IMG/VR virus record: IMGVR_UViG_3300011584_000016
Location: 1-32,869 of that record
Length of the DNA: 32,869 bases
Reading direction: 5' to 3' (one strand)
Source: a virus
Taxonomy: Duplodnaviria; Heunggongvirae; Uroviricota; Caudoviricetes
Each line of letters opens with the position of its first letter. Positions within the stretch are counted from its first letter, which is position 1. Position numbers and translations under genes: made by a program. Shown piece by piece: positions 1 to 17,128 of the stretch. The notes beneath the pieces are model-generated. The model made no database searches, was not told where the DNA came from, and saw only the letters and a program-made list of their open reading frames with translations.

Positions 1-993
1 TTATATTTTCATCGTAGCTAATGGGTTTAATGTCACCGCATCAAACAAATGATCAGGGGCAAAGTGGGCATACGTCATCGTTTGTTGGATTTTGTGATGG
101 CCCAGGACTCGTTGAAGTACCAATATGTTTCCTCCGTTTGCCATGAAATGAGAGGCGAAAGTGTGCCTGAAAGCGTGAGTTGCCTGTCCGTCAGGTAGAT
201 CAGGAACAGCGCCTTTAATAACTTTTCGTGCAGTCTGATAGCTCGCATCCGGGAAAATCAGTTGTTTGTCGTGTACTTCAATCCTCTGCATTAACTCCAT
301 TTCCAGTTCCTTACCGATAGGAACTGAACGTGATTTGCCATTTTTGGTTTTTGTAAATGTCACCATGCCGTTAACCAGTCTCTGCCTGGTTAATTTTGCA
401 CCTTCACTCCATCGTGCACCGGTGGACAGACAAAGTTTGGCTATCAGCTTGTTGTCGCCTGTTAACTCTGTCAGAACCGTTCTAATCTGTTCGTCAGTAA
501 AATATCCCTGTTCTGATTCGGTCAGTTTCAGTTCTGCGAGTCCAGTCATTGGGTTGTTATCCCAGAATAGATCCAGTTCTTTCAATTTACTGAACACTGA
601 CTTCAAGTATCGTTGTTCATTATTTAACGTTTTTGGCGCGATCCCTTCTGCCCGCCGTTTTGTTCGGTACTCTGCAAAAAGCTGGGCGGTGAGTTGGGTT
701 ATACGTGGATTATTTAAGCGCGCGCATGAGGCATTCAAAATCCATAACCGGTTTTTGCAGTCGGTGAGCGTTTGCCCGTGGTTCTTCCACCACAATTCGA
801 TCAGTTCAGATAACCGACGCCGATCAGCTGGTTTTTCCAGCCATTCTTTATTATTAGCACTGGCTATTATCCAGCGTTCAAAGGTGACAGCCTCTGATTT
901 AGTGGAGAATGAACGCCTGACGCGCTTCCCGGAACGCCCCGCAGGCCGAACATCAACCATGTATTTTCCGTTGTCCTTTTTAGTAATGGTCAT
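1..993 (-). CDS. int: Phage tyrosine integrase (site-specific recombinase)
   Basis: 330-aa ORF; C-terminal region HAFRHTFASHF...LGH...TMTYAHF fits the tyrosine-recombinase catalytic R-H-R-Y pattern; sits at the prophage edge next to a repressor gene. Confidence 0.9.
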   Translation of the reverse strand: MTITKKDNGKYMVDVRPAGRSGKRVRRSFSTKSEAVTFERWIIASANNKEWLEKPADRRRLSELIELWWKNHGQTLTDCKNRLWILNASCARLNNPRITQLTAQLFAEYRTKRRAEGIAPKTLNNEQRYLKSVFSKLKELDLFWDNNPMTGLAELKLTESEQGYFTDEQIRTVLTELTGDNKLIAKLCLSTGARWSEGAKLTRQRLVNGMVTFTKTKNGKSRSVPIGKELEMELMQRIEVHDKQLIFPDASYQTARKVIKGAVPDLPDGQATHAFRHTFASHFMANGGNILVLQRVLGHHKIQQTMTYAHFAPDHLFDAVTLNPLATMKI

Positions 994-1097
994 TTGTCAT
1001 TTTCTCCGGCTGTGAATGCTGGTCGTCATTTGCTGACGAACTGAACTGGGTAACACGGGCAGCAATATATAACTGTTCAATTTGTTGCCAGTTCGGG

Positions 1098-1376
1098 TTA
1101 TTGGTTAATAGATTGTTTTGGCGAGCGAAGAGGGAAAAGCGCCGGATCGATTTGCCCGGATGATGCTGCGGTCTTATTTGTCATCATCCATAACGTATAT
1201 TTATTGAATCTGGGGTTTCGGGTGATCTTCAATAAATCAATATCAGGCAGCGTCATTATTATTTGCTGCCTGAATTGATACAGTGTCTTCTTCGAAATAT
1301 CACAAAACATCGCGAATTCGCAGATAGTGAGATTTTCAGCATTAATTATCAAGAATAAGCGGTTACGCAAGGACAT
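1098..1376 (-). CDS. P2 C-type repressor paralogue (HTH), integrase-proximal
   Basis: About 92 aa from the internal Met (MSLRNRL...); C-terminal PRFNKYTLWMMTNKTAASSGQIDP parallels PRFQKYTLWLMSDITAPEAGQIAP of the repressor at 2471-2731 and the C-terminus I recall for P2 C; start could instead be 1403. Confidence 0.6.
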   Translation of the reverse strand: MSLRNRLFLIINAENLTICEFAMFCDISKKTLYQFRQQIIMTLPDIDLLKITRNPRFNKYTLWMMTNKTAASSGQIDPALFPLRSPKQSINQ

Positions 1377-1419
1377 ATACACCTCGATTGCTATTATTGG
1401 CATTCAGGGCGCAAATGTA

Positions 1420-1437
1420 TTGTTCGCACACGAACAA
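1420..1437. promoter_or_regulatory. Operator-like inverted repeat TTGTTCG-CACA-CGAACAA upstream of the integrase-proximal repressor gene
   Basis: Perfect 7-bp arms with 4-bp spacer, about 45 bp upstream of the 1376 start, at the edge of an AT-rich promoter-like stretch (1440-1557). Confidence 0.35.
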
Positions 1438-1557
1438 ATTTTAGCCAAAACTGCTTATCAGTAATTCATGTATGTAATAAATGGTAATTATCAATCAATA
1501 TAAAATATATGTTGTATATTTTTTGTGTAATTTATTAAAAAGTAATATATCGCACAA

Positions 1558-1992
1558 TTAGAACAGCTCTTTTACCAAAGCGATTATGACTCCTGCTGTA
1601 GCGAAAAGGGCAGAGCATAGCCATATCATTTGCTTATGTAATCCCTTTGCAAGATCTTCCCTGGTTGCGGACCTGGACTCTTTGAGTTCGCCGCTAATCT
1701 GTGCCTTAAGCTCGCGCATATCTCCGGTCATCTGCGCACGGAGTTCTTTCATATCCCCAGTTATCTGCGCCTTGAGTTCACGCAGATCGCCCTTTGAGGC
1801 GAAGTCATCAGCGCGCGCGTTGAGATGGGTAAGTTCTTTAACAATTACACCGGTATTGTCTTCCAGTTTTTCAACGCGTTTTATTAGGCTGTTCATGCCG
1901 TTGCCTCCGTCGTCACTACTGTTTGTGGACTCATTATTTATGGGTACCTGACGTTCTCTTATATGATGAACATTATCCTTAGTCTGACTCAT
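1558..1992 (-). CDS. Coiled-coil protein with C-terminal transmembrane anchor (DUF1640-like), unknown function
   Basis: 144 aa; tandem heptad-like repeats GDLRELKAQITGDMKELRAQMTGDMRELKAQISGELKE then hydrophobic tail MIWLCSALFATAGVIIALV; overlaps the upstream gene by 14 nt. Confidence 0.6.
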   Translation of the reverse strand: MSQTKDNVHHIRERQVPINNESTNSSDDGGNGMNSLIKRVEKLEDNTGVIVKELTHLNARADDFASKGDLRELKAQITGDMKELRAQMTGDMRELKAQISGELKESRSATREDLAKGLHKQMIWLCSALFATAGVIIALVKELF

Positions 1993-2428
1993 TTTTGCAT
2001 TCCTTGCGATTCTCTTCTATCCATGCGACGACCGGGCGGGCGCGATAAATGCTGATATGCCCGCAGTTTGGGCAATTAATTTTATATTCGACATCGGCTA
2101 ATCTTATTTTTGTATGAGTATTCACAAACACGGGCGTTACATACCAGAGAGTATTATCAGCTGCGAATTTCTCCTGATCGATTTGCGATAAAGAGTCATA
2201 GTTTTCGGGAGTCTTTGCACCGTTATAAACTCCGTTTTCGGACATTGTTAATTTAGTAAATCCACATGATATGCAGAACTGAGCGGCGTTTTTTGACATC
2301 AAAAATTCAGCGAATAATTCAGGGGTAACTTGTTGTAGCCTTTTCATAAGTTCTGGTGATGGTTCTCCATAGCGGGAATTACGAGGTGGGCGTATTGGGG
2401 GTATAAATGTATCATTATCTTTTGACAT
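1979..2428 (-). CDS. Hypothetical zinc-ribbon protein (CISCG ... CPNCGH)
   Basis: 149-aa ORF with two Cys pairs about 70 residues apart; lies between the distal repressor gene and the coiled-coil gene on the same strand. Confidence 0.55.
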   Translation of the reverse strand: MSKDNDTFIPPIRPPRNSRYGEPSPELMKRLQQVTPELFAEFLMSKNAAQFCISCGFTKLTMSENGVYNGAKTPENYDSLSQIDQEKFAADNTLWYVTPVFVNTHTKIRLADVEYKINCPNCGHISIYRARPVVAWIEENRKECKNESD

Positions 2429-2470
2429 ACATTTTCCTTATGTATTATTCGCCCGCAGTGCGGGCGGTGA

Positions 2471-2731
2471 TTAACCGGTCTTTTTCTCTTCTTTGGTAAC
2501 TGGTGCTATCTGACCTGCTTCTGGTGCGGTGATGTCAGACATCAGCCATAGCGTGTATTTTTGAAAGCGCGGGTGTTGGGCGATTTTAACCAAAGCACTA
2601 CCACCAGGTTCATACCCCCCCGTTTCATATTTCCTAAGCGTATTTATAGATAAGTCAATAACTTCGCAAAACTCATTCTGACTAAGACCTTCGGCTGCTC
2701 TAATCGCTTTTAATTTTTCACCAAGTTTCAT
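2471..2731 (-). CDS. P2 C-type immunity repressor (XRE-like HTH), adjacent to the switch region
   Basis: HTH-like LSQNEFCEVIDLSINTLRKYE; C-terminal FQKYTLWLMSDITAPEAGQIAP resembles P2 C as I recall it; likely ATG at 2731 rather than the TTG at 2746 used by the ORF track. Confidence 0.7.
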   Translation of the reverse strand: MKLGEKLKAIRAAEGLSQNEFCEVIDLSINTLRKYETGGYEPGGSALVKIAQHPRFQKYTLWLMSDITAPEAGQIAPVTKEEKKTG

Positions 2732-2739
2732 TTGACAGT

Positions 2740-2785
2740 AGTCCAATTAGACATTAAATCTCCCTTCATGCAGTCTAATTAGACT
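2740..2785. promoter_or_regulatory. Switch-region operator-like sites: AGTCCAATTAGACA (2740-2753) and perfect palindrome AGTCTAATTAGACT (2772-2785)
   Basis: Two related 14-bp sites with centres 32 bp apart, between the divergent repressor gene (start 2731) and the first rightward gene (2829). Confidence 0.4.
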
Positions 2786-2828
2786 ACTTGAAGACAAGCG
2801 AAACCAATCTAAACAGACAGGATATCAA

Positions 2829-3248
2829 ATGACACCAGAGCAAAACAGAGCTTTACCCGCACATCAGGAGGCTGATCCTGGTTACTACCCGGTCGTTGAA
2901 CTGGCACAAGGCGCGTTTTTACCCGAACAGACTCAAAGCAATCATCAGCGCCGCGCTCGGCGATCCCCTGATAGTCGTTCTGAACGTGAACTAATGGCAA
3001 TTGACCGCGCACTGAAACATATCCTTAGTAGTGGCATTAAACCGGTTTTAACAGTGCAGGAATTTTCCGAATTCTTCGGACAGTCTTTGCGTAAGGTTCA
3101 AAGCGATGCTGAGCGCGGCTATCTGCCATTAGTGCCGCGTGTCGATCCAAATCGTCGCGAACTAAGACAAATCAATATGGTTGCATGGTATGCCAGAGCT
3201 TTTATGACTGCCGAAGCCAGCCTGACAAAAACGACAGCGTTTAATTGA
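2829..3248 (+). CDS. Putative Cox/excisionase-like early regulator
   Basis: First rightward ORF after the switch; AGGA 8 nt upstream of ATG; N-terminal 55 aa low-complexity so true start may be ATG 2994; assignment by position only. Confidence 0.4.
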   Translation: MTPEQNRALPAHQEADPGYYPVVELAQGAFLPEQTQSNHQRRARRSPDSRSERELMAIDRALKHILSSGIKPVLTVQEFSEFFGQSLRKVQSDAERGYLPLVPRVDPNRRELRQINMVAWYARAFMTAEASLTKTTAFN

Positions 3249-3256
3249 GAGGAAAA

Positions 3257-3493
3257 ATGTTTAATCCACTTAACACAGAAAAGGCGCGGGAAGTCGATCC
3301 GTTTTATGAAGGGTACGACGTGCCGGTATATGTGCAACCGGGTAAGCGACTGCCCGTCGCGATCGAATCCCGCGAAATGGAAATGGCAATTCTGGCCGCG
3401 TTTGATTACGGCATTGACGCACTGAACGATGACGGACGCCACCAACTGGACCGCCTGATCGCTGATCTAAAGCTTGCCATTACTGGCAGATAA
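3257..3493 (+). CDS. Hypothetical early protein
   Basis: GAGAGG RBS 6 nt before ATG 3257; about 79 aa. Confidence 0.5.
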   Translation: MFNPLNTEKAREVDPFYEGYDVPVYVQPGKRLPVAIESREMEMAILAAFDYGIDALNDDGRHQLDRLIADLKLAITGR

Positions 3494-3504
3494 ACGGGTG
3501 CGCA

Positions 3505-3726
3505 ATGAGCCAATATTTTTTTTCGGGGATATTTAATGTTGCGGTTTTTATTTTGGGGGCCGTTGTTGTTTGGTCCTACGGAAGATTAAAAAACAGTAGC
3601 AACAGAATCCGTTTTATTGACGCATTACACAGGGATATTGAAGCGGCGGCACCATTATTTTTAGATGTATTTTGTGGCTGGTTGCTAATATTTGGCGTCG
3701 TTTCCCTTTCAGAGTGTCTTTTATGA
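3505..3726 (+). CDS. Hypothetical small membrane protein
   Basis: 73-aa ORF with two hydrophobic stretches; weak RBS. Confidence 0.3.
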   Translation: MSQYFFSGIFNVAVFILGAVVVWSYGRLKNSSNRIRFIDALHRDIEAAAPLFLDVFCGWLLIFGVVSLSECLL

Positions 3727-3953
3727 GTGAACAACAAATTCCTTCATTCGCCAGTCTATTACGTAACGGTTGCCAGGTCACACATTGCAAATCGACGCGC
3801 GGCTGGATTGAAACACCGGACGGGCGTTATTTTAAGCCTGAACCGGCAAAAGTTCAGTTTATTAAGGGCAGAAACAGGCCTTTTGTATATACGCAAAAAA
3901 TAAACAGGGCCGTAATAGCCGCATTGATTAAATTAATTAAACGCTATTTTTAA
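3723..3953 (+). CDS. Hypothetical early protein
   Basis: About 76 aa from MSEQQ; ATGA overlap with the previous ORF suggests coupling. Confidence 0.4.
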   Translation: MSEQQIPSFASLLRNGCQVTHCKSTRGWIETPDGRYFKPEPAKVQFIKGRNRPFVYTQKINRAVIAALIKLIKRYF

Positions 3954-4030
3954 TTAACTGAATTTATTAAATATCACACATCACTTTAAAAAGTGGTGCG
4001 GATTCTTTCAACCTAAAAACGGGTAATTAT

Positions 4031-4246
4031 ATGTCTATGACTAAACGGGATGAATACAGTTTTGTATTGCATTCATTTTTACCGGAGCTTGAAGAGCGCG
4101 GAATGACTATAAAAACGCGTAACGCAGGCGAATTAACACTGGCATCAACAGATCCTGATGTTGTTGCATTTATACAATCCATGCGCCGTCGTCTTACTAA
4201 TGCGCTGAGCCGTCCATCTCTTCCCTCTTCACCATACGGAATCTAA
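4031..4246 (+). CDS. Hypothetical early protein
   Basis: 71-aa ORF ending 2 nt before the exonuclease gene. Confidence 0.4.
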   Translation: MSMTKRDEYSFVLHSFLPELEERGMTIKTRNAGELTLASTDPDVVAFIQSMRRRLTNALSRPSLPSSPYGI

Positions 4247-4248
4247 TC

Positions 4249-4836
4249 ATGAATAATATAATGATTGACATTGAAACATTAGACAATAAACCAACTGCCG
4301 CAATTGTTTCTATTGCTGCCGCATTTTTCGATCCCCGAACTGGCGAGATTGGGATGTCTATTTATATTCCCGTCAATGTTGCTGATGCTCAATACAAAGG
4401 GGCGACAATTGGTGCGGATACTGTTAAATGGTGGATGAAGCAAAATTTATGCGCAAGAGATGAGCTTGTATCTGATGCTGGCTTGCCTTTATCAGAGTCG
4501 CTCTATAAGTTGAACGATTTTTGTTGTTTTTGTGATGATTCAGACAATTTAAAAATATGGGCGCGCGGCACTGATTTTGATTTACCAGTTATTTATCACT
4601 CAATGCGCCTGACAGGGATTCGTCCGGCCTGGAATTTCTGGAATGCTCGCGACGTTAGAACGGTTGCAGAAATCGCGCTGACAATATGCGGTCATTCATC
4701 AATGCGCGCGGTTCTGGAACATCCGCATCACGCAATGAATGACGTTATTAACCAGATTGCCAGATTAAGCGACGATATCAAAAACATTTCTGCCGTTCGC
4801 GCGGAGAAGGTGAATCATGATTCGCCGGAAAAATGA
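4249..4836 (+). CDS. DnaQ-like (DEDD) 3'-5' exonuclease
   Basis: N-terminal IDIETLD (Exo I-like acidic motif) and C-terminal HHAMNDV (Exo III-like H-x4-D); 195 aa. Confidence 0.7.
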   Translation: MNNIMIDIETLDNKPTAAIVSIAAAFFDPRTGEIGMSIYIPVNVADAQYKGATIGADTVKWWMKQNLCARDELVSDAGLPLSESLYKLNDFCCFCDDSDNLKIWARGTDFDLPVIYHSMRLTGIRPAWNFWNARDVRTVAEIALTICGHSSMRAVLEHPHHAMNDVINQIARLSDDIKNISAVRAEKVNHDSPEK

Positions 4837-5038
4837 TAATTGCCCCGCCTGCGTTGTTGATCAGGCACACAATTTAATTAATGAATTCCGACAGGGTCGC
4901 CGCGATAAAGTGCGGCGGCTGGCGACTGGTTATCTGTCAATTGCAATCGGCAGATGTTGGCGGTTACTGAGTAAAAACGACGGCCAGCAATGGACTTTAT
5001 TAACTCACGAACGATATAACAAGGAATATAAAAAATGA
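4817..5038 (+). CDS. Hypothetical small protein (CPAC motif)
   Basis: 73-aa ORF overlapping the exonuclease 3' end by 20 nt and ending in ATGA overlap with the Dam gene. Confidence 0.35.
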   Translation: MIRRKNDNCPACVVDQAHNLINEFRQGRRDKVRRLATGYLSIAIGRCWRLLSKNDGQQWTLLTHERYNKEYKK

Positions 5039-6051
5039 TCAGACCGTTTTTGAAGTGGGCAGGTGGAAAAACTCGCGCTTTGCCTGAGCTGCTGCCGCAC
5101 TTGCCAAAGGGTTATTGTCTGATGGAACCATTTGTTGGCGGCGGTTCGGTATTTTTAAACACAAGTTATGATAAGTATGTTTTAGCTGATATTAATTCAG
5201 ATCTGATAAATACGTATGAAAACGTGAAACATCGCACTAATCTATTTATTGACGTTGCACGGGAATTATTTAAAGAAGGTAATTCAAAAGAATATTATTT
5301 AAAGATTCGCAAAGAATTTAACGAACTAAATACAAGTTACCACGAATGCGGTCGCCGCCCCTTATCACTGAGATTGTCGTTAATGCAGTCGGCGCGGTTT
5401 CTCTATTTGAATCGGCACGGTTATAACGGCGTTTGCCGCTATAACAATAAACTGGAATACAATGTTCCGTTTGGTCAACATAAGACAGCGCCGTATTTTC
5501 CCGAAGAGGAGATCCGGCGGTTTGCAGAAAAGGCGAATGATACAAACGCAGTGTTTCTCAATCTTAATTTTGATGACACATTATCAATGCTGACATTCGG
5601 GCCTAATCTCGTTATTTACTGCGATCCGCCATATTTACCCGCCAGCGAAACCGCAGACTTTACCACGTATTACGGACAGAGATTTACGCGGGACGATCAC
5701 TGCCGCTTAGTTCAGAAATTATTAGAAATAAGTGCGCGTGGTGCTGCAAAAGTTGTTATTTCAAACAGCGACACACCCGCCGCGCGAGAAATATACGTGT
5801 CGTTTACATTTCAGGAAATTAATGTTCAACGGTCAGTCAGTGCCAATACCAGCAAACGCGCGACTGCAAAAGAAGTGATCGGATATATCCCACATTGTGA
5901 ATATTGCGGGGGTCGTCTGATTACTGGCCGTCCGTGTAGTTGTGACACCCAACGCCGCACGGTTTGGGGTTGCCCTGATGGCGGCTGCGGAGCTTGTGAC
6001 AGTGTCGATCTTTGTGCGAGCGCGGGGAGTGAATTCTATGACCAGGACTAG
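5035..6051 (+). CDS. dam: DNA N6-adenine methyltransferase (Dam-like) with Cys-rich C-terminal extension
   Basis: N-terminal FLKWAGGK (AdoMet motif) and catalytic DPPY; C-terminal about 60 aa carry 9 Cys (HCEYCGG...CSCD...GCPDGGCGACDSVDLC). Confidence 0.85.
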   Translation: MIRPFLKWAGGKTRALPELLPHLPKGYCLMEPFVGGGSVFLNTSYDKYVLADINSDLINTYENVKHRTNLFIDVARELFKEGNSKEYYLKIRKEFNELNTSYHECGRRPLSLRLSLMQSARFLYLNRHGYNGVCRYNNKLEYNVPFGQHKTAPYFPEEEIRRFAEKANDTNAVFLNLNFDDTLSMLTFGPNLVIYCDPPYLPASETADFTTYYGQRFTRDDHCRLVQKLLEISARGAAKVVISNSDTPAAREIYVSFTFQEINVQRSVSANTSKRATAKEVIGYIPHCEYCGGRLITGRPCSCDTQRRTVWGCPDGGCGACDSVDLCASAGSEFYDQD

Positions 6052-10706: not shown

Positions 10707-11019
10707 AGCTTGGTAACAACAGGTATAATGTTTTTTGTTTTTGTTCTGGCGACATCATATCGATCAGCGTTTTGATAGCGCGGTCAGATGAAAGCGCGCT
10801 GGGGCTTAATGTGTGAGAAAATGTTATATTAACGACGAAAGTATGACCGCACTCAACGTTATTACAGGCGCAATAAACATCTGATAGATGGGGATGTTTC
10901 CGCACGGTCTTTTTGATCGTTGAATTGCCGTTGCATTCCGGACAGATAATTTTCGGGCTGCGCAATTTGTTTCCCCTTAATCTATTTTTGAGCGGGGTAT
11001 ATTTTAACCGTTTAGCCAT
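10705..11019 (-). CDS. Ogr/Delta-family zinc-finger protein (late transcription activator-like)
   Basis: CPEC-x20-CAC-NNVEC-GHTF resembles the Ogr zinc finger (CQNVNCSATF in P2 Ogr as I recall); start overlaps the portal stop by 1 nt. Confidence 0.55.
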   Translation of the reverse strand: MAKRLKYTPLKNRLRGNKLRSPKIICPECNGNSTIKKTVRKHPHLSDVYCACNNVECGHTFVVNITFSHTLSPSALSSDRAIKTLIDMMSPEQKQKTLYLLLPS

Positions 11020-12053
11020 TATTTTTCATCCTCTATCGCTTTCGGTTTTTTGAATAACACCTGCATTGCGCGGGTAATTTCAGAATCACTATTGATTGCA
11101 TTCTCAATTAGCGCCTGCATGGGCCAGACTTCATCTAATTGATATACGGCACGGACTTTTAACGGGTCGCCCAGTCCGCCCACGTTATCCGGAATAATGC
11201 CCGCAAGGCCAGGCGGGAAGCGATGGGCGGTTAACTGGTCCTGTGCGGATATGCGCTTGATATTCACATATTCATCTTTTGTTGCGACATCACCCACAGG
11301 GATAATTTTAACGCCGTCTGGTTTACCGTTGGGGATGTTAATAAACATACTGCGGAAATTACCCGCGCCTTTTGACTGTTCTATTTTTTCAGAAATGGCC
11401 TTTTCCATTTCTGGTGATAAATCCGGATCGGTGGCATACAGGATATAACCTAAATGCGCCCCATTACGATAATATTTGCGGCGAAACATGGTCGCGTCAC
11501 TATTTAACATCGCCGACTGGATGCCGCCTAAATAATCCGGTTTTCCGTAAATCTGCTGCAACGTATCGTACTGACGGATAAAAATAATATCTTTTGCGGC
11601 ATATTCTTTATATTCGCCGTCGCGTAACAATAATTTTGTTTTGCCGTCAGTGGAACGCCGCACATAAACAGACGGCAGCGGGTACAGGCGCACGACCTGC
11701 CCGAAGCCGTTGCGGATCTTTAACAGCGCCACGTCACCGAACGTCACGAAGTTAACGGCCAGCGCCAGGGCGGTTTCAGGCGTCAGACCGCCGCCGCGAA
11801 GAAAACCCGCCGCGACCATTTTCGCGCGCGCCCCCAGACATGCGCCGTGGTACGTTGCGATGTCGGGCAATTTTGCCAGCGCTTCCCGGTCAATGGGCGG
11901 CGTCCAGTAGCCGTCTCCTTCATCTGTTACGCCATCATATGAACCCAGGCACGGCACGCGCTCGGCGTCGCCGAATTCCACGCTAAAAGACATCTGTTTT
12001 TGAATAGCTGGCGCGAGGGCCGGGGCTGGTTGTTGTTTTTTACGTTTTGCCAT
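11019..12053 (-). CDS. Q: Portal protein (P2 gpQ-like)
   Basis: 344 aa, the length I recall for P2 Q; directly downstream of the large terminase on the same strand. Confidence 0.9.
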   Translation of the reverse strand: MAKRKKQQPAPALAPAIQKQMSFSVEFGDAERVPCLGSYDGVTDEGDGYWTPPIDREALAKLPDIATYHGACLGARAKMVAAGFLRGGGLTPETALALAVNFVTFGDVALLKIRNGFGQVVRLYPLPSVYVRRSTDGKTKLLLRDGEYKEYAAKDIIFIRQYDTLQQIYGKPDYLGGIQSAMLNSDATMFRRKYYRNGAHLGYILYATDPDLSPEMEKAISEKIEQSKGAGNFRSMFINIPNGKPDGVKIIPVGDVATKDEYVNIKRISAQDQLTAHRFPPGLAGIIPDNVGGLGDPLKVRAVYQLDEVWPMQALIENAINSDSEITRAMQVLFKKPKAIEDEK

Positions 12054-13826
12054 TTATACGGCCCATGTTGATTTACGTTTATTTTTCCAGTTCAACGGCT
12101 CATTAAAGAGCGCGTGAGCGATTGCAAAGAAAACATCGGCGTGACCGTGCTCTGCGCTGCGGTCTGCAATGAACGTCAGGTTGTCGCCGCTCTGCGTGGT
12201 CGCCTTTTTGACGCTCATAAATGACGCTGCAATGTCCTTTTCCTGGGCGTCCCATTCGATCCGCTGGTTTTCGATGACGTCTATCATTTTCAGTACAAGC
12301 TGGGTTTTTGTTTCGACGTTGTAGCGGATTGCCGCTGCCTGGCGGCGGGCGAAGTTCTGGATCAGTTCAAACACGCCGTAGCCGATGCCGGTCACGTCAA
12401 CGCCGATAAACGTCATGTTGAACTGTCGGAATAGTTTTTCTATCTGATCCGCCATGTACTGAAACGACAAACCGCGCCAGTGGTACTTTTCCAGAACGCG
12501 GAACATTTCGGCCAGCGTGGCGGGAATGGCAACAATGACAAATGTCGCGTTGTCGCCGGTTCGCGCGGGGTCGAACCCGCCCCACACTTCCCCGTTATAC
12601 GGGTGCGCGCTGCCGGGGTGGTAGTCCTTCCATTTGCTGGTTTCCACGCCGCAGCGCACCACGTCGGAAAACCTGAACACGCTGTTTTTGTCGTCCACAA
12701 ACTGGCACATAAACAACATTGCAAACGCGGTTTCGCTGTAGCGGTCGCGCAAGTCGTCGATATTGGCCAGATTGAATCCGCCCGCGATCGCATCTTCCAG
12801 GGTGATGACGTATCGCCATTGTTTATCCGGGCAAAGTCGCCCGCCGTCGCGCATTTCGTCAAATGTCGGGAAGACTGCCGCCCGGCGTTTTTTGTTGCCG
12901 CCCTTCCAGGTCTCACCGGTCCAAAACGGGTAAGCCTCATGTGTTTTCGCGGACGGTGTGGAAAAGTACGTTAAACGCCATCTGTCATGGGTTGCCATCG
13001 CTGACGCAACGTCATTAAGGCGGTTAAATTTCGGTATCCAGAAATATTCATCAATATAAACGTGACCGGAATTCGACTGCGCGGTGTTGCTGTTGGTCGC
13101 CAGAAAATGCAGTTCGGCGATGCCGTGCGCGGTGTTCAGTTTGATCGGGTTGCCTTTCAGCGTAACGCCGAATTCCTGCAACGCGATATTGACGATGTAT
13201 GACCGGAAAACCTCTGATTGTCGCTTACTGGCAGAAAGAAATATTTGCGGGTCACCGGTCAGCGTCGCGTTTTCGAACGCTTCAAACGCAAAATAGTATG
13301 TCGCGCCGATCTGACGGCTTTTAAGGATGTTGCGGATCTTCTGGCTTAAGTTCTCATGCAGCCGCTGCTGGTAGCCGAACAGGGTAGAAATGAAGTGTTC
13401 AAAGTCTGCTGCCGTCAGGTGGCTGACGTCGTTTGCCCGCCGTTTCTTCTGGCGTGGGTTGTCACTGTCATCTGCGGCGGCTGCTGCGCGCGGGGTGTTA
13501 CCGGGTCCGTGCGCGTCTATTTCCGCCATTCTTTCAGCGTGCTTATTTCTGGATGCCAGCAGTTTGACGTGATGGCCGATCAGGCGGTCCAGTTCGTCTA
13601 GTTCGCCAGGTGTTTTCTTTTCCCGGTCAGTCAGCAGGGCAATGCGACGCGCGATCGCGTCTTCAATGTTTACGACCTTCATCTGGTCGCGCCATTCCCC
13701 CACATCAGCCCAGTGATAAATGATCCGCGCAGATGGCAGATTTAACTGGGCGGCGATTTCTTTCGGGGTGAGTCCCTTTAAATAAAGGGCTTTCGCCATT
13801 CCCCTTAATTCGTCTGAATATTTCAT
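12054..13826 (-). CDS. P: Terminase large (ATPase) subunit (P2 gpP-like)
   Basis: 590 aa, matching P2 P length; divergent from the scaffold/capsid operon as in P2. Confidence 0.9.
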   Translation of the reverse strand: MKYSDELRGMAKALYLKGLTPKEIAAQLNLPSARIIYHWADVGEWRDQMKVVNIEDAIARRIALLTDREKKTPGELDELDRLIGHHVKLLASRNKHAERMAEIDAHGPGNTPRAAAAADDSDNPRQKKRRANDVSHLTAADFEHFISTLFGYQQRLHENLSQKIRNILKSRQIGATYYFAFEAFENATLTGDPQIFLSASKRQSEVFRSYIVNIALQEFGVTLKGNPIKLNTAHGIAELHFLATNSNTAQSNSGHVYIDEYFWIPKFNRLNDVASAMATHDRWRLTYFSTPSAKTHEAYPFWTGETWKGGNKKRRAAVFPTFDEMRDGGRLCPDKQWRYVITLEDAIAGGFNLANIDDLRDRYSETAFAMLFMCQFVDDKNSVFRFSDVVRCGVETSKWKDYHPGSAHPYNGEVWGGFDPARTGDNATFVIVAIPATLAEMFRVLEKYHWRGLSFQYMADQIEKLFRQFNMTFIGVDVTGIGYGVFELIQNFARRQAAAIRYNVETKTQLVLKMIDVIENQRIEWDAQEKDIAASFMSVKKATTQSGDNLTFIADRSAEHGHADVFFAIAHALFNEPLNWKNKRKSTWAV

Positions 13827-13978
13827 AAGGGGATTTTTGCATTTAAAAAACGTCGGGTATCCGGCCTATATTCGCTTTAATTCTGATAACGGCTTATATC
13901 CGAAATAGTCAGAAATTAACGGCATGAAAATAAAACGGCTGGGTGTTTTACTTTACTTTATCGAAATGAGGGTAACTT

Positions 13979-14824
13979 ATGAAACAAACACCCACCGCGT
14001 GGTTTTGTGTTGCCACTGCTGGCCCGACCGTAGACGGACGGGAAATTAAAGAACAATGGCTGGCGGAAGCTGCGGAAACTTATAACGCGGCGGAGTATAC
14101 CGCCATGATTTGGCCGTCAAGCGTTGACCGCCATCAAAAATGGTACAACCTCGGCACTGTTCATAGTGTTAAGTGCGAAACGGTTAACGGCAAGGTTAAG
14201 TTATATGCGCGTTTCCTGCCTAATAAATGGATGATGTCGTTAAACCGCGATGATCAGCAAAAGCTATTCCCATCTGTGGAAATTCTGGAAAATTTCGCCA
14301 GTACCGGAAAGCATTATCTTGCTGGGATTGCTGTAACCGATTTGCCCGCCAGTACGGGGACCGATCGTCTTGAATTTTCCGGCGCGCCGAATGTTATCAG
14401 CTTTTGCAGTGGCGAACCGATGACCGAAGTTGCGGACAAAGAATCTTTTTTAACCCGCCTGTTTTCGCGTCTGCCGCAGTCACCTGAACAGGGCGCGCGC
14501 GATCCAGACAATAACCAGGAAGATGACAAAATGAATGAACAGCAATTCACGCAATTAATGAGCGTGTTTAATACCGCTGTAGAAAAAATGGGGACCGCCG
14601 TAGATGAAATTAAATCATTCAGCGCAAAAAAAAACACGACTGTTATTGAAAATAATCAAAACAGTCTGGAAGGTGATCAGCCGCAAGTCGTGACAGTGGA
14701 GCAATTCACCACACTTAATGGCAAGGTCGATCAGTTGCTGCAAAAATTTACCGCGCTGTCTGGTGAAACGACGGAACAGCCGAACGGCGAACCCGCGCAG
14801 ACCGTGCCGGATTATCTGGTGTAA
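13979..14824 (+). CDS. O: Capsid scaffolding protein (P2 gpO-like)
   Basis: SVEILENFASTGKHYLAGIAVTDLPASTGTDRLEF resembles the P2 gpO core as I recall it; 281 aa. Confidence 0.8.
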   Translation: MKQTPTAWFCVATAGPTVDGREIKEQWLAEAAETYNAAEYTAMIWPSSVDRHQKWYNLGTVHSVKCETVNGKVKLYARFLPNKWMMSLNRDDQQKLFPSVEILENFASTGKHYLAGIAVTDLPASTGTDRLEFSGAPNVISFCSGEPMTEVADKESFLTRLFSRLPQSPEQGARDPDNNQEDDKMNEQQFTQLMSVFNTAVEKMGTAVDEIKSFSAKKNTTVIENNQNSLEGDQPQVVTVEQFTTLNGKVDQLLQKFTALSGETTEQPNGEPAQTVPDYLV

Positions 14825-14861
14825 AGCCGGGTAATAATTACTATTCATCAGGAATAAATAA

Positions 14862-15854
14862 ATGATTCTTACCCCGGAAGCGGAAAAACTTATTAACCAA
14901 TATGCGGTGACGCTTGCGAAAGCGTATAGCGTCGCCACCACAAAGCATATGTTCACTATCAGTCAGCCGCAGGAAATTAAACTGCGTAAAGCGCTGCTGG
15001 ATTCAACGGCATTTCTGAAAGAAATTTCTATGCTGTCGGTTAACCAGATTAAAGGCGCGGTTGTTGAAGCTGGCGTTTCTAAACTTTTAACTGGACGTAA
15101 AAAAGATGGGCGCTTCGGTGTCGATCTGGGCGTTGATGGCAACGAATACGAATTGCGCGAAACGGATTCCTGCGCGCGCCTGAAGTGGGCGCTTTTGGCT
15201 GTCTGGGCGAATTCCGGGACGCCTGGTGAGTTCTTTAAACTCGTCACTGAGTTTGCAAACGAATCCTTCGCGCTGGACATCCTGCGCATCGGCTTTAATG
15301 GTAAAAGTTTTGCCGAAAATACCGATCCGGTGGCGAACCCGAACGGCGAAGATGTTAACAAGGGCTGGCATCAGATTTCTAAGGAATACGACAACGGTTC
15401 TCATGTTCTCACCGCAGCCGTGTCGATCGGCGCTGGCGGGGATTATTTAACCCTGGACGCTGCGGCGCTGGATGTGATCGCGATGCTGCCCGCGCAATTC
15501 CGCGAACATCCACAATTAACGGTGCTGGCCGGTTCTGATCTGATTGCCGCTGAACAGCAGCGCATGGCAAACCAGACCGATAAGCCGACCGAAAAAGCCG
15601 CGTTTACGCCGATGCTGAAATCTATCGCCGGTCGTCGCCACGTTACACCGCCTTTCTTCCCTGGTAAGCGTATTGCAGTGACTATCCCTAAAAACCTGCA
15701 TTGCTACACGCAAACCGGCACGCAGCGCCGCGAAGCGAAGCACGTCGGGGACCGTAAGGCGTTTGAATCCTCCTGGTGGCGTATGCAGGGCTATGCGCTG
15801 GAAATTCCCGCGCTGTACGCCGCGATCGATGAAGCCGCAGTCACTATCAAGTAA
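14862..15854 (+). CDS. N: Major capsid protein (P2 gpN-like)
   Basis: LDILRIGFNGKSFAENTDPVANP and VSIGAGGDYLTLDAAALD resemble P2 gpN segments as I recall them; 330 aa. Confidence 0.85.
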   Translation: MILTPEAEKLINQYAVTLAKAYSVATTKHMFTISQPQEIKLRKALLDSTAFLKEISMLSVNQIKGAVVEAGVSKLLTGRKKDGRFGVDLGVDGNEYELRETDSCARLKWALLAVWANSGTPGEFFKLVTEFANESFALDILRIGFNGKSFAENTDPVANPNGEDVNKGWHQISKEYDNGSHVLTAAVSIGAGGDYLTLDAAALDVIAMLPAQFREHPQLTVLAGSDLIAAEQQRMANQTDKPTEKAAFTPMLKSIAGRRHVTPPFFPGKRIAVTIPKNLHCYTQTGTQRREAKHVGDRKAFESSWWRMQGYALEIPALYAAIDEAAVTIK

Positions 15855-15863
15855 GGGTTTGTT

Positions 15864-16676
15864 ATGCCGTTGACACCGTTTCAGCGCCACGTCGAAAGCA
15901 TTCGCGCGCGCCAGGTTATGACCGGTGAAGCCGCACCCCGCGCGGTTGGTCTGGATGACAGTAGTTTGTATGTGCAGCTTTTGCAGTTACGGCAGGATGT
16001 CGGGACGCTGCGCGATCTGCATAGCAACGCAGAACGCTTTCAGATGAAGCGTGACGTTATGCTGCCGCGCTGGTTGCCGTGGGCTGAAAAGTACCTGGAA
16101 GCGGGCGACATCTATCAAAATCCGGTTTTCGTCTGGTGCATTGTCTGGCTGATGGATGTTAGAAAGTTTGAACAGGCGCTGAACTGGGCTGATATTGCGA
16201 TCGAACAGGGTCAGGAGTCACCGGAAGGTTTCCGTAACAATCTGCCCGGAACGGTGGCTGATGAAGTGCTGGACTGGTCAGAAATTGAGTTTGAAGCGGG
16301 CCGCAGTATTGAGCCGTTTTTCTCTCAAACCTTTAAGAATGTGACTGAGCGCTGGAAGCTCAACGAACAGCTAACGGCGAAATATTACAAACTGGCCGGT
16401 TTCCTGATCCTGCGCGGTGCTGATGGGCGCATTAATCCCGCAAATCTTGATGATCCGGCAGCATTGCGCCAGGCCGATTTATATCTGGAAGCGGCAGGCA
16501 CGCTATACAAAAACGCGGGGGTTACTTCCCTGCGTGGGCGTATCGCGGCACGTCTGCGCAAACTTGAAACGACTCCGCAACGCGGCGCGGGCGCGGCTGA
16601 GGGGGTAGGCGAAGAAAACGCCGATCGCGCCGTGGACGCCGGTCAGCCCGCGACTTCTGAAACTGAGGGCGCTTAA
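15864..16676 (+). CDS. M: Terminase small (endonuclease) subunit (P2 gpM-like)
   Basis: Position after capsid gene; N-terminal PFQRHV...EAAP and LPRWLPW resemble P2 gpM. Confidence 0.75.
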   Translation: MPLTPFQRHVESIRARQVMTGEAAPRAVGLDDSSLYVQLLQLRQDVGTLRDLHSNAERFQMKRDVMLPRWLPWAEKYLEAGDIYQNPVFVWCIVWLMDVRKFEQALNWADIAIEQGQESPEGFRNNLPGTVADEVLDWSEIEFEAGRSIEPFFSQTFKNVTERWKLNEQLTAKYYKLAGFLILRGADGRINPANLDDPAALRQADLYLEAAGTLYKNAGVTSLRGRIAARLRKLETTPQRGAGAAEGVGEENADRAVDAGQPATSETEGA

Positions 16677-17128
16677 TGTTTTCCGGCAAAACGGCGAACT
16701 ACCAGGACCGCGTGATCAAAAACGTAGAGTTCTGGCCGGATATTAACGCCGGGGAATTTGAGGAACGCCGCCAGATCCCCGCCAGTATCGCTAATGCGAC
16801 GGTTGTCGCGGCGCTACTGGCGGCAATTGACAGCGTAAACCGTGATCTGGACACCTGGGCCGATATTCAATGCGGCAAGGGGTATTCCTCTGCGGCAGAT
16901 GTTCCGGGGCCGTCGTGTGAAGGGGCTAACGCGCTGACTGAGTCTTACAAAAAGGCTGTTTTTGCCAGGGCGAAAGCCGATTTAATGCCGGAATTTGCCA
17001 CCGTGGGACGTCGTGAAACGCACCCCGGCGCGGAATCGCAGGAAACGGCGGACGGCTTACGCGGTGAAGCTGCGCAGGTTATCCGCCAGATTATGGGCTA
17101 TGCCCGCGCCACGGTGAGGCTGTTATGA
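16676..17128 (+). CDS. L: Head completion/stabilisation protein (P2 gpL-like)
   Basis: 150-aa ORF following M with ATGA-type overlaps on both sides. Confidence 0.7.
   Translation: MFSGKTANYQDRVIKNVEFWPDINAGEFEERRQIPASIANATVVAALLAAIDSVNRDLDTWADIQCGKGYSSAADVPGPSCEGANALTESYKKAVFARAKADLMPEFATVGRRETHPGAESQETADGLRGEAAQVIRQIMGYARATVRLL

Follow-up and report, generated by a model that had tools for sequence, protein, structure and literature searches.

Described systems and the locus under study

P2 is the textbook case of a lysogeny switch, in which one small repressor, C, also drives the integrase gene int. The present analysis concerns the left end of a 32,869-nucleotide stretch of viral DNA (Caudoviricetes; IMG/VR record IMGVR_UViG_3300011584_000016, positions 1 to 32,869), called here the window in its full length. 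This end represents the lysogeny-control region of a P2-like prophage, with the minus-strand order C_B, a gene of 149 amino acids (aa), a 144-aa gene, an AT-rich spacer, ORF A and int. C_B and open reading frame (ORF) A are both P2 C-type genes. ORF A appears to be an old, selected, integrase-linked paralogue, named C', which is neither a pseudogene nor a by-product of cargo insertion. The favoured reading, to which a probability of about 0.45 is given, is that C' would head and control a separate C'-orfX-int unit, most simply by autoregulation, uncoupling integrase supply from the Pc/Pe switch.

The closest described protein is the P2 C repressor (2XCJ/2L49; P2, WPhi and P2 Hy dis). Both window proteins are homologous to it over their full length (86-92 aa versus 99 aa) and possess the surface motif KYTLW...GQIxP. 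C_B resembles it also in its position on the cox side, in its repeated operators and in the equivalents of Arg13, Tyr37 and Glu38. ORF A differs in lying away from cox, in having no repeated operator of the C_B type, in being much more basic and in its tie to a frame which ends at int. The P2 operators are non-palindromic direct repeats, whereas the C_B operators are each palindromic. Duplicated C genes go unmentioned in a comparative study of P2-like regulatory regions (PMC3448106), and no published description of an int-linked C paralogue was found in a literature search that fell short of most subscription journals.

An accessory and defence hotspot between repressor and integrase is known in K139-like P2-related Vibrio phages (Rousset et al. 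2022, PMC9122126), and a survey preprint of 2026 counts the repressor-integrase region among the minor hotspots of P2 (10.64898/2026.02.27.708500). The K139/PhiO18P-like hotspot of the former and the integrase-primase hotspot of the latter resemble the window in having variable genes between repressor and int on the lysogenic strand. The window differs from both in its int-side flank, which is composed of a second C paralogue and orfX and is not described there. It differs from the repressor-integrase defence hotspot in that its cargo matches no known defence family. Cargo at this position has been described before; what appears to be new is the conserved second paralogue with its coupling to int, as well as the arrays of tandem C genes. 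The C' arrangement would thus represent a previously undescribed flank of the cargo slot in P2-like prophages, and a selected int-linked C paralogue suggests that integrase control is separable from the immunity switch by repressor duplication.

Two further systems share single features with this locus. Mycobacteriophage Mcgavigan, with its Bxb1-like repressor (PMC12700041), is likewise a prophage which carries a repressor-family gene besides its own switch repressor. The extra repressor of Mcgavigan resembles the primary repressor of a known group, whereas ORF A resembles none found. In KplE1, intS stands under its own local regulator and not under the main switch (PMC2951348). The regulators there are the recombination directionality factor TorI and IntS itself, with no repressor paralogue, while the role of ORF A is proposed only.

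Two P2 C-type genes in the lysogeny-control region

The features of the window on which the comparison depends are as follows.

1..993, minus strand: int, tyrosine integrase of the P2 Int type, 330 aa (ORF list; its orthologues match Pfam Int_N and Phage_integrase)
980..1097, minus strand: orfX, a small conserved reading frame, +1 relative to ORF A (alignment, frame translations and third-position substitution bias)
1098..1376, minus strand: ORF A or C', divergent int-linked paralogue of the P2 C repressor, 92 aa, isoelectric point 9.8 (homology, AlphaFold2 (AF2) model, ratio of nonsynonymous to synonymous substitution rates (dN/dS), residues)
1377..1465, minus strand: upstream region of ORF A, shared with relatives, with the Shine-Dalgarno sequence (SD) GAGGTG, the CGAACAATACATTTRCGCC block and the lineage-specific palindrome TTGTTCG-N4-CGAACAA at 1420-1437
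2471..2731, minus strand: C_B, canonical P2 C-type repressor, 86 aa (Pfam HTH_3, phrog_147, 2L49/2XCJ, residues)
2737..2788, no strand assigned: predicted switch operators with 16-nucleotide (nt) arms at 2737-2752 and 2773-2788, each containing the palindromic 12-mer GTCYAATTAGAC
2829..3248, plus strand: divergent cox-like gene, 139 aa, with the Cox-like part from near 2994 (phrog_575, E 7.4e-9; weak Pfam Phage_Cox match)

An earlier note, made from the letters of this DNA alone, had proposed that ORF A and C_B are paralogous repressor genes, one adjoining int and the other adjoining the switch with accessory genes between them. This layout was confirmed, and both genes were found intact on the minus strand. 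The two proteins are true paralogues; BLASTP aligned them with 31 of 78 positions identical (40%), 55% positives and one gap (E 8e-17). The similarity runs from helix 1 to the C-terminal motif PRF[NQ]KYTLW[ML]M...GQI[AD]P, which is present in both, and is not confined to a short low-complexity stretch. Both proteins match phrog_147 (ORF A, E 7e-16; C_B, E 1e-28) and the solved P2 C repressor 2XCJ/2L49 (E 1.5e-8 and 9.7e-14, respectively). As to a possible pseudogene, ORF A has a good start, with GAGG 5 nt 5' of the ATG at 1376 that is kept in relatives, and it is intact in all relatives found. Separate upstream sites were also present as proposed, GTCYAATTAGAC occurring twice between C_B and cox and one palindrome standing at 1420-1437 before ORF A. 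A single C is indeed the norm: all 105 deposited phage records matched by ORF A showed one match per record (105/105), no second C-like match was found in any of these P2-like phages, and 78 of 80 IMG/VR loci possess a single C.

By its position and sequence marks C_B is, as far as can be predicted, an ordinary working immunity repressor. It matches Pfam HTH_3 above the cut-off (E 4.8e-10) and retains the equivalents of R13, Y37, E38 and G40 along with the conserved surface patch. It faces the divergent cox-like gene, whose product matches phrog_575, 'Cox-like excisionase and repressor', with operator-like repeats between the two. The 12-mer GTCYAATTAGAC lies at 2741-2752 and 2773-2784 with a start-to-start spacing of 32 nt, each copy in a longer 16-nt arm, and the first arm overlaps a perfect TTGACA at 2732-2737. 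C_B would act on these two operators between itself and cox. The 12-mer occurs only twice in the window, both times at the switch, and no other operator of the C_B type was found elsewhere in it. The positional marks of a switch repressor, a cox neighbour and operators, are thus found at C_B. ORF A has no cox or cox remnant upstream and no C_B-type operator, and it stands on the int side in every context.

The int-linked gene forms a separate clade

Relatives of ORF A were searched in a word-indexed set of 5.8e9 protein clusters, by a HMMER scan of 1.84e9 cluster representatives, in three contig collections and in 50,697 phage records. Close relatives were very few. In none of the collections searched did an A-type protein take the place of the primary repressor next to cox. 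In species-representative genomes A-type relatives were absent and only one distant ordinary C was found, in Erwinia. The JGI metagenomes gave the window's phage and ordinary C genes only, with no further A-type relative. A single-query integrase search returned the window's own contig alone, and no DNA nearly identical to the window was found among deposited phages.

Five A-like lineages were recovered. They form one long-branch clade (neighbour-joining bootstrap 190/200), which is separated from every canonical C by a Kimura distance of more than 1.1. C' is found directly upstream of int in the window, L001/L003, L002 and L024, and it is never placed beside cox. L002 (Enterobacter sp. MF024) shows the order cox, C, a 293-aa BRCT-like protein, A-like gene and int. 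L024, a 2-kb assembly contig, has cox, C, A-like gene and int, a hairpin-plus-T-run terminator and an AT-rich spacer being the sole intervening DNA. L025 has the A-like gene followed by int on a contig too short for a view upstream of C'. L026 (Logan SRR25820363) possesses three tandem canonical C genes (13-306, 343-603 and 647-910) and then the A-like gene (1105-1395); its contig ends before int, and the conserved orfX frame follows C'.

The earlier note had taken the second copy to have come with the cargo by recombination, and this part was not supported. The int-side clade is old and distinct and occupies the same position without cargo (L024), with other cargo (L002) and behind three C genes (L026); therefore the paralogue predates the cargo. 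As to ancestry, the two copies are real and the comparison of relatives makes C' older than the cargo, not a consequence of it.

The C' ORFs are intact in all five lineages (85-94 aa), and dN/dS values of 0.13-0.5, obtained at near-saturated dS, point to purifying selection on C'. C' is 68% identical between the window and the Enterobacter phage, Int 62% and C 49%. Conservation among relatives also extends over some 85 bp of DNA 5' of C', the SD included. ORF A is AT-rich, with 37-40% GC.

The protein cluster of ORF A is found on roughly 650 E. coli contigs of the protein collection, with the same layout in all. Near-identical prophages adjoin mipA/yeaG in 7 of 5,426 complete E. coli genomes; in the E. 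coli relatives int is annotated as 'phage integrase' and the prophage end abuts mipA/yeaG. In seven RefSeq complete genomes (S1-KEN-03-A and six others) ORF A is intact and is not called by the annotation pipeline PGAP (L001 3994-4557), while GenBank draft assemblies label the protein 'transcriptional regulator' or 'hypothetical'.

A further arrangement of this kind was found in Pantoea allii (L113, GCA_013201575.1, 3139-5341), where fieF/pfkA on one side and cpxP on the other enclose a minimal stretch with cox, C, C' and int alone. The Pantoea C' is another residue-divergent paralogue in the same place, behind a textbook terminator after C. Its grouping with the A-like clade was supported by a bootstrap of 54/200 only, so that a single origin of all C' is unproven. 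A direct repeat of 8-10 nt, ATCACCTG, with copies 39 nt apart, is present just upstream of the Pantoea C'.

Extra canonical C genes were observed in two loci. In L026, the second and third C have their closest counterparts in the primary repressors of the window phage and the L002 phage, and the tandem genes look like an array of heteroimmune repressors. L064 (IMGVR_UViG_2706794630_000007) carries two tandem canonical C genes, 3038-3391 and 3501-3794, between cox and int. The last 29 residues of the two L064 copies differ at one position, which suggests accretion through recombination in the conserved 3' part of C. Extra canonical repressors at the same site in other genomes would be a simple route to multiple immunity.

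Predicted fold and residue conservation of C'

The AF2 model of ORF A (mean predicted local distance difference test score, pLDDT, 86) is composed of helices at 3-13, 18-25, 29-36, 45-52 and 55-66. Its top Foldseek match is 2XCJ_A, with template modelling (TM) scores of 0.79/0.86 and a root mean square deviation of 1.4 Å over 80 columns. ORF A is thus predicted to keep the five-helix helix-turn-helix (HTH) fold of P2 C.

Residues were compared in P2 C numbering, with 64 other family representatives as the comparison set. Five positions are altered in C', as follows.

Arg13 of P2 C: I or M in the C' clade, I in ORF A
Arg20 of P2 C: I or G in the C' clade, I in ORF A
Tyr37 of P2 C: F or L in the C' clade, F in ORF A
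Glu38 of P2 C: R, M, K or Y in the C' clade, R in ORF A
Gly40 of P2 C: Q or R in the C' clade, Q in ORF A

Arg13, Tyr37 and Glu38 are described as strictly conserved in the C family, with roles in DNA-backbone contact or positioning (Massad et al. 2010, PMC2995052). In the comparison set R13 was present in 56/64, Y37 in 45/64 and E38 in 54/64 representatives. The signature of these three residues is found in C_B and is missing from ORF A. The equivalents of Glu16, Lys60, Tyr61, Gly75, Gln76, Ile77, Pro79, Ala80 and Leu81 are invariant in C', and ORF A retains the surface patch (Glu16, Lys60, Tyr61 and Gly75-Pro79), position 78 being D in C'. This conserved patch was proposed to contact another protein, the anti-repressor epsilon acting near Thr67, and part of it is also required for the stability of the fold (PMC2995052). 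The C-terminal half of C' is far better conserved than the HTH half, and the recognition-helix positions vary between lineages.

The net charge of the core is +4 to +8 in C' versus -1 to +4 in the canonical C proteins compared; because of this basic charge, loss of nucleic-acid binding was not concluded. The dimer-interface positions are invariant within C', though the C proteins resident alongside them vary in sequence as well as in loop length. Since the C' interface is invariant while the partner C proteins vary, these alignments favour C' homodimers, and a heterodimer of C' with the resident C was considered and disfavoured. As a separate observation, in four family proteins of 163-195 aa (P0006, P0007, P0009 and P0060) one complete P2 C-type domain follows another in the same polypeptide, which may reflect single-chain dimers or else gene calls that run across tandem copies.

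The small frame between C' and int

The orfX frame is open in all five lineages. In the window it is open from 1180, overlapping the 3' end of ORF A, and extends over 980-1180 on the minus strand; the corresponding frames lie at 6225-6375 in L002, 1052-1213 in L024, 467-634 in L025 and 1337-1486 in L026. Substitutions in orfX are mostly at third codon positions (L002 versus L026, 1/2/8 over the three positions, dN 0.06, dS 0.86), and in the ~100 bp between ORF A and int the two remaining frames are interrupted by stops in most or all comparisons. Ordinary P2-like C-int spacers have no such frame.

The stop of orfX is at 982-980 in the window, 11 nt inside int, and in relatives it overlaps the int ATG as TAATG or ATGA. 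A stop placed at the int start in this way has the geometry expected of translational coupling. A TTG able to open the frame is present in four lineages, and the window (E. coli) lineage has no in-frame ATG, GTG or TTG start for orfX. ORF A might be extended into orfX by a +1 shift, which would yield a C'-X fusion tied to int translation. As a +1 frameshift site joining the two, CTT-T of the window was considered and not supported; it is not conserved in L002.

Proposed integrase unit and alternative explanations

In the proposed arrangement the lineage layout would be cox, C, variable slot, C', orfX and int, with C' as an ancient C paralogue fixed as the first gene of an integrase unit. C' would be a DNA-binding regulator with a target other than that of C_B, most likely its own promoter region. 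Autoregulation of C' would then set the level and timing of Int apart from the Pc/Pe switch, and translation of Int would be coupled to the orfX frame which ends at the int start codon. An intrinsic terminator is present directly after C in L024 and L113; therefore C'-int needs its own promoter there.

Several observations weigh against this proposal. No conserved C' operator was found in the upstream regions compared. The palindrome before ORF A is only partly conserved, being present as GTTC-N6-GAAC in three of the five lineages and not palindromic in the other two. The recurrent repeat TAGCAAT does not co-vary with the variable recognition helix. Matches to a sigma-70-like promoter upstream of ORF A numbered 4, with 5.6 expected by chance. 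No terminator-like site was found on the minus strand of the window between 900 and 3100, hence none between Pc and int, and the whole string to int could be read from Pc there, as in P2. With Arg13, Tyr37 and Glu38 gone, C' may have ceased to bind DNA altogether. In addition, the independent lineages recovered number about six in all, and several of these are known from contigs of 1-2 kb.

Two minor observations belong to the upstream regions. The AT-rich string GCAATATTAAT occurs about 85 nt upstream of three A-like genes (L002 5921-5931, L024 746-756 and L025 162-172), and 10 nt of it (GCAATATTAA) are present in the cox/C switch of L024 at 306-316, between two inverted operator-like arms. 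It might serve in both places as a promoter element or as a binding site. A LexA box upstream of ORF A was sought by eye and rejected, the sole candidate being CTG-N5-CAG with the wrong spacing.

Dual or heterotypic immunity, as put forward in the earlier note, would make ORF A a second repressor which binds the early-promoter operators of another P2-like phage. The modelled HTH fold is intact, the protein is basic and its recognition-helix positions change from lineage to lineage in the manner of immunity specificities. Mcgavigan provides a precedent, and the degraded Pantoea element retains only cox, C, C' and int. Such a role is nevertheless doubtful for ORF A, which is never adjacent to cox and is without the Arg13, Tyr37 and Glu38 signature. 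An extra repressor of the heterotypic kind is close to the primary repressor of another group, which is not the case here; no A-type primary repressor was found in any of the collections, so no target phage is visible. The fixed linkage to orfX and int and the conserved upstream region also point to a backbone role and not to cargo. An immunity role of this dual or multiple kind suits better the extra canonical C genes, which accumulate at the same position in L026 (three) and L064 (two) and make selection for added repressors plausible.

The loss of DNA-contact and positioning residues beside an invariant surface patch raises a different explanation, that C' is a decoy or modulator which binds protein and not operators. 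Its partner would be the resident C, with repression tuned or relieved, or RNA polymerase, or a satellite anti-repressor of the P4 epsilon type. The better conservation of the C-terminal half is in keeping with this, as is the proposal that the patch is a protein contact with epsilon acting near Thr67 (PMC2995052). We regard it as rather improbable, since the invariant C' interface facing differing resident C proteins argues for homodimers and not heterodimers, the strongly basic charge is unexplained by a pure decoy role, and part of the patch is needed for fold stability in any case (PMC2995052). If C' proved to be a decoy or a timer of Int, it would be a new regulatory element for a well-studied phage family. 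A narrower form, for which we see little chance, is that C' is a repressor mimic that soaks up anti-repressors of satellites (P4 epsilon type) or of rival phages and so guards the prophage against forced exit from lysogeny. If true, the C-family surface seen by anti-repressors or RNA polymerase would have been kept and the operator-contact residues lost.

It is hardly credible that ORF A is a drifting relic, the leftover C of an ancestral switch displaced by an incoming C_B-cox module with cargo: its canonical C position relative to int, its AT-richness, its lack of a Pfam HTH match and its absence from the PGAP calls would agree with this, but the selection data (an intact ORF in five lineages, omega 0.13-0.5) largely refute it, SD and start are conserved, the conservation of C' exceeds that of C and Int, the AF2 model is confident, and no cox remnant or switch-like DNA was found upstream of C', where only exact 9-11-nt strings matched (E 0.02-0.3), GCAATATTAAT among them.

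The slot between C and C' and the rest of the window

The remaining features between the two repressor genes are as follows.

1466..1557, minus strand: AT-rich spacer, GC about 29-35%, specific to the window and forming the right-hand slot edge; one weak sigma-70-like site at 1531-1504
1558..1992, minus strand: cargo gene 1, 144 aa, with a heptad-like repeat (…LRELKAQITGDMKELRAQMTGDMRELKAQISGELKE…) and a hydrophobic C-terminal stretch (translation inspected by eye)
1979..2428, minus strand: cargo gene 2, 149 aa, phrog_4293 (E 1.7e-20), with two CxxC motifs, zinc-ribbon-like
2450..2466, minus strand: GC-rich hairpin just 3' of the C_B stop, left-hand slot edge (compared with L024 602-632)

The junction between C and C' is best described as a variable slot, which extends from the terminator hairpin of C to the upstream region of C'. 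The slot holds the 149-aa and 144-aa pair in the window, the 293-aa BRCT-like protein in L002 and extra C genes in L026, and it is empty in L024. Variable gene content between conserved flanks, as expected of a repressor-integrase hotspot, is thus present in related prophages. The window hairpin at 2450-2466 corresponds by homology to the stem of the terminator that follows C in L024, but the cargo begins where its T-run would stand. As no terminator stands between Pc and int in the window, read-through from Pc could express the cargo, which would be typical of accessory genes expressed in lysogens.

Pfam and PADLOC gave nothing above threshold for the window cargo, and no defence family was matched. 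Cargo gene 1 showed weak sub-threshold Pfam and PADLOC matches only, and tblastn of the deposited phages gave no match to it. Homologues of phrog_4293 are found also in Salmonella, Klebsiella and Enterobacter phages of about 48 kb, and the 149-aa gene is a mobile accessory gene which uses differing slots in other phages. In a P2-like element of Klebsiella pneumoniae (L114, CP052639.1, 3119-3508), a phrog_4293 homologue lies immediately downstream of int. The L002 slot protein (4845-5726, 293 aa) is BRCT-like in its C-terminal region and weakly matches the PADLOC defence candidate PDC-S48 (E 4e-8). In the IMG/VR loci L058-L063, L069 and L073, a gene of ~190 aa is situated between a single C and int, at about 3740-4320; the slot is therefore used also without a second C.

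No Rfam family was matched anywhere in the window. Beyond the control region, positions 11019-17128 show P2-like ORF sizes and order, and large ORFs continue beyond. From ORF size and order alone, this block was read as portal, large terminase, scaffold, capsid, small terminase and head completion genes.

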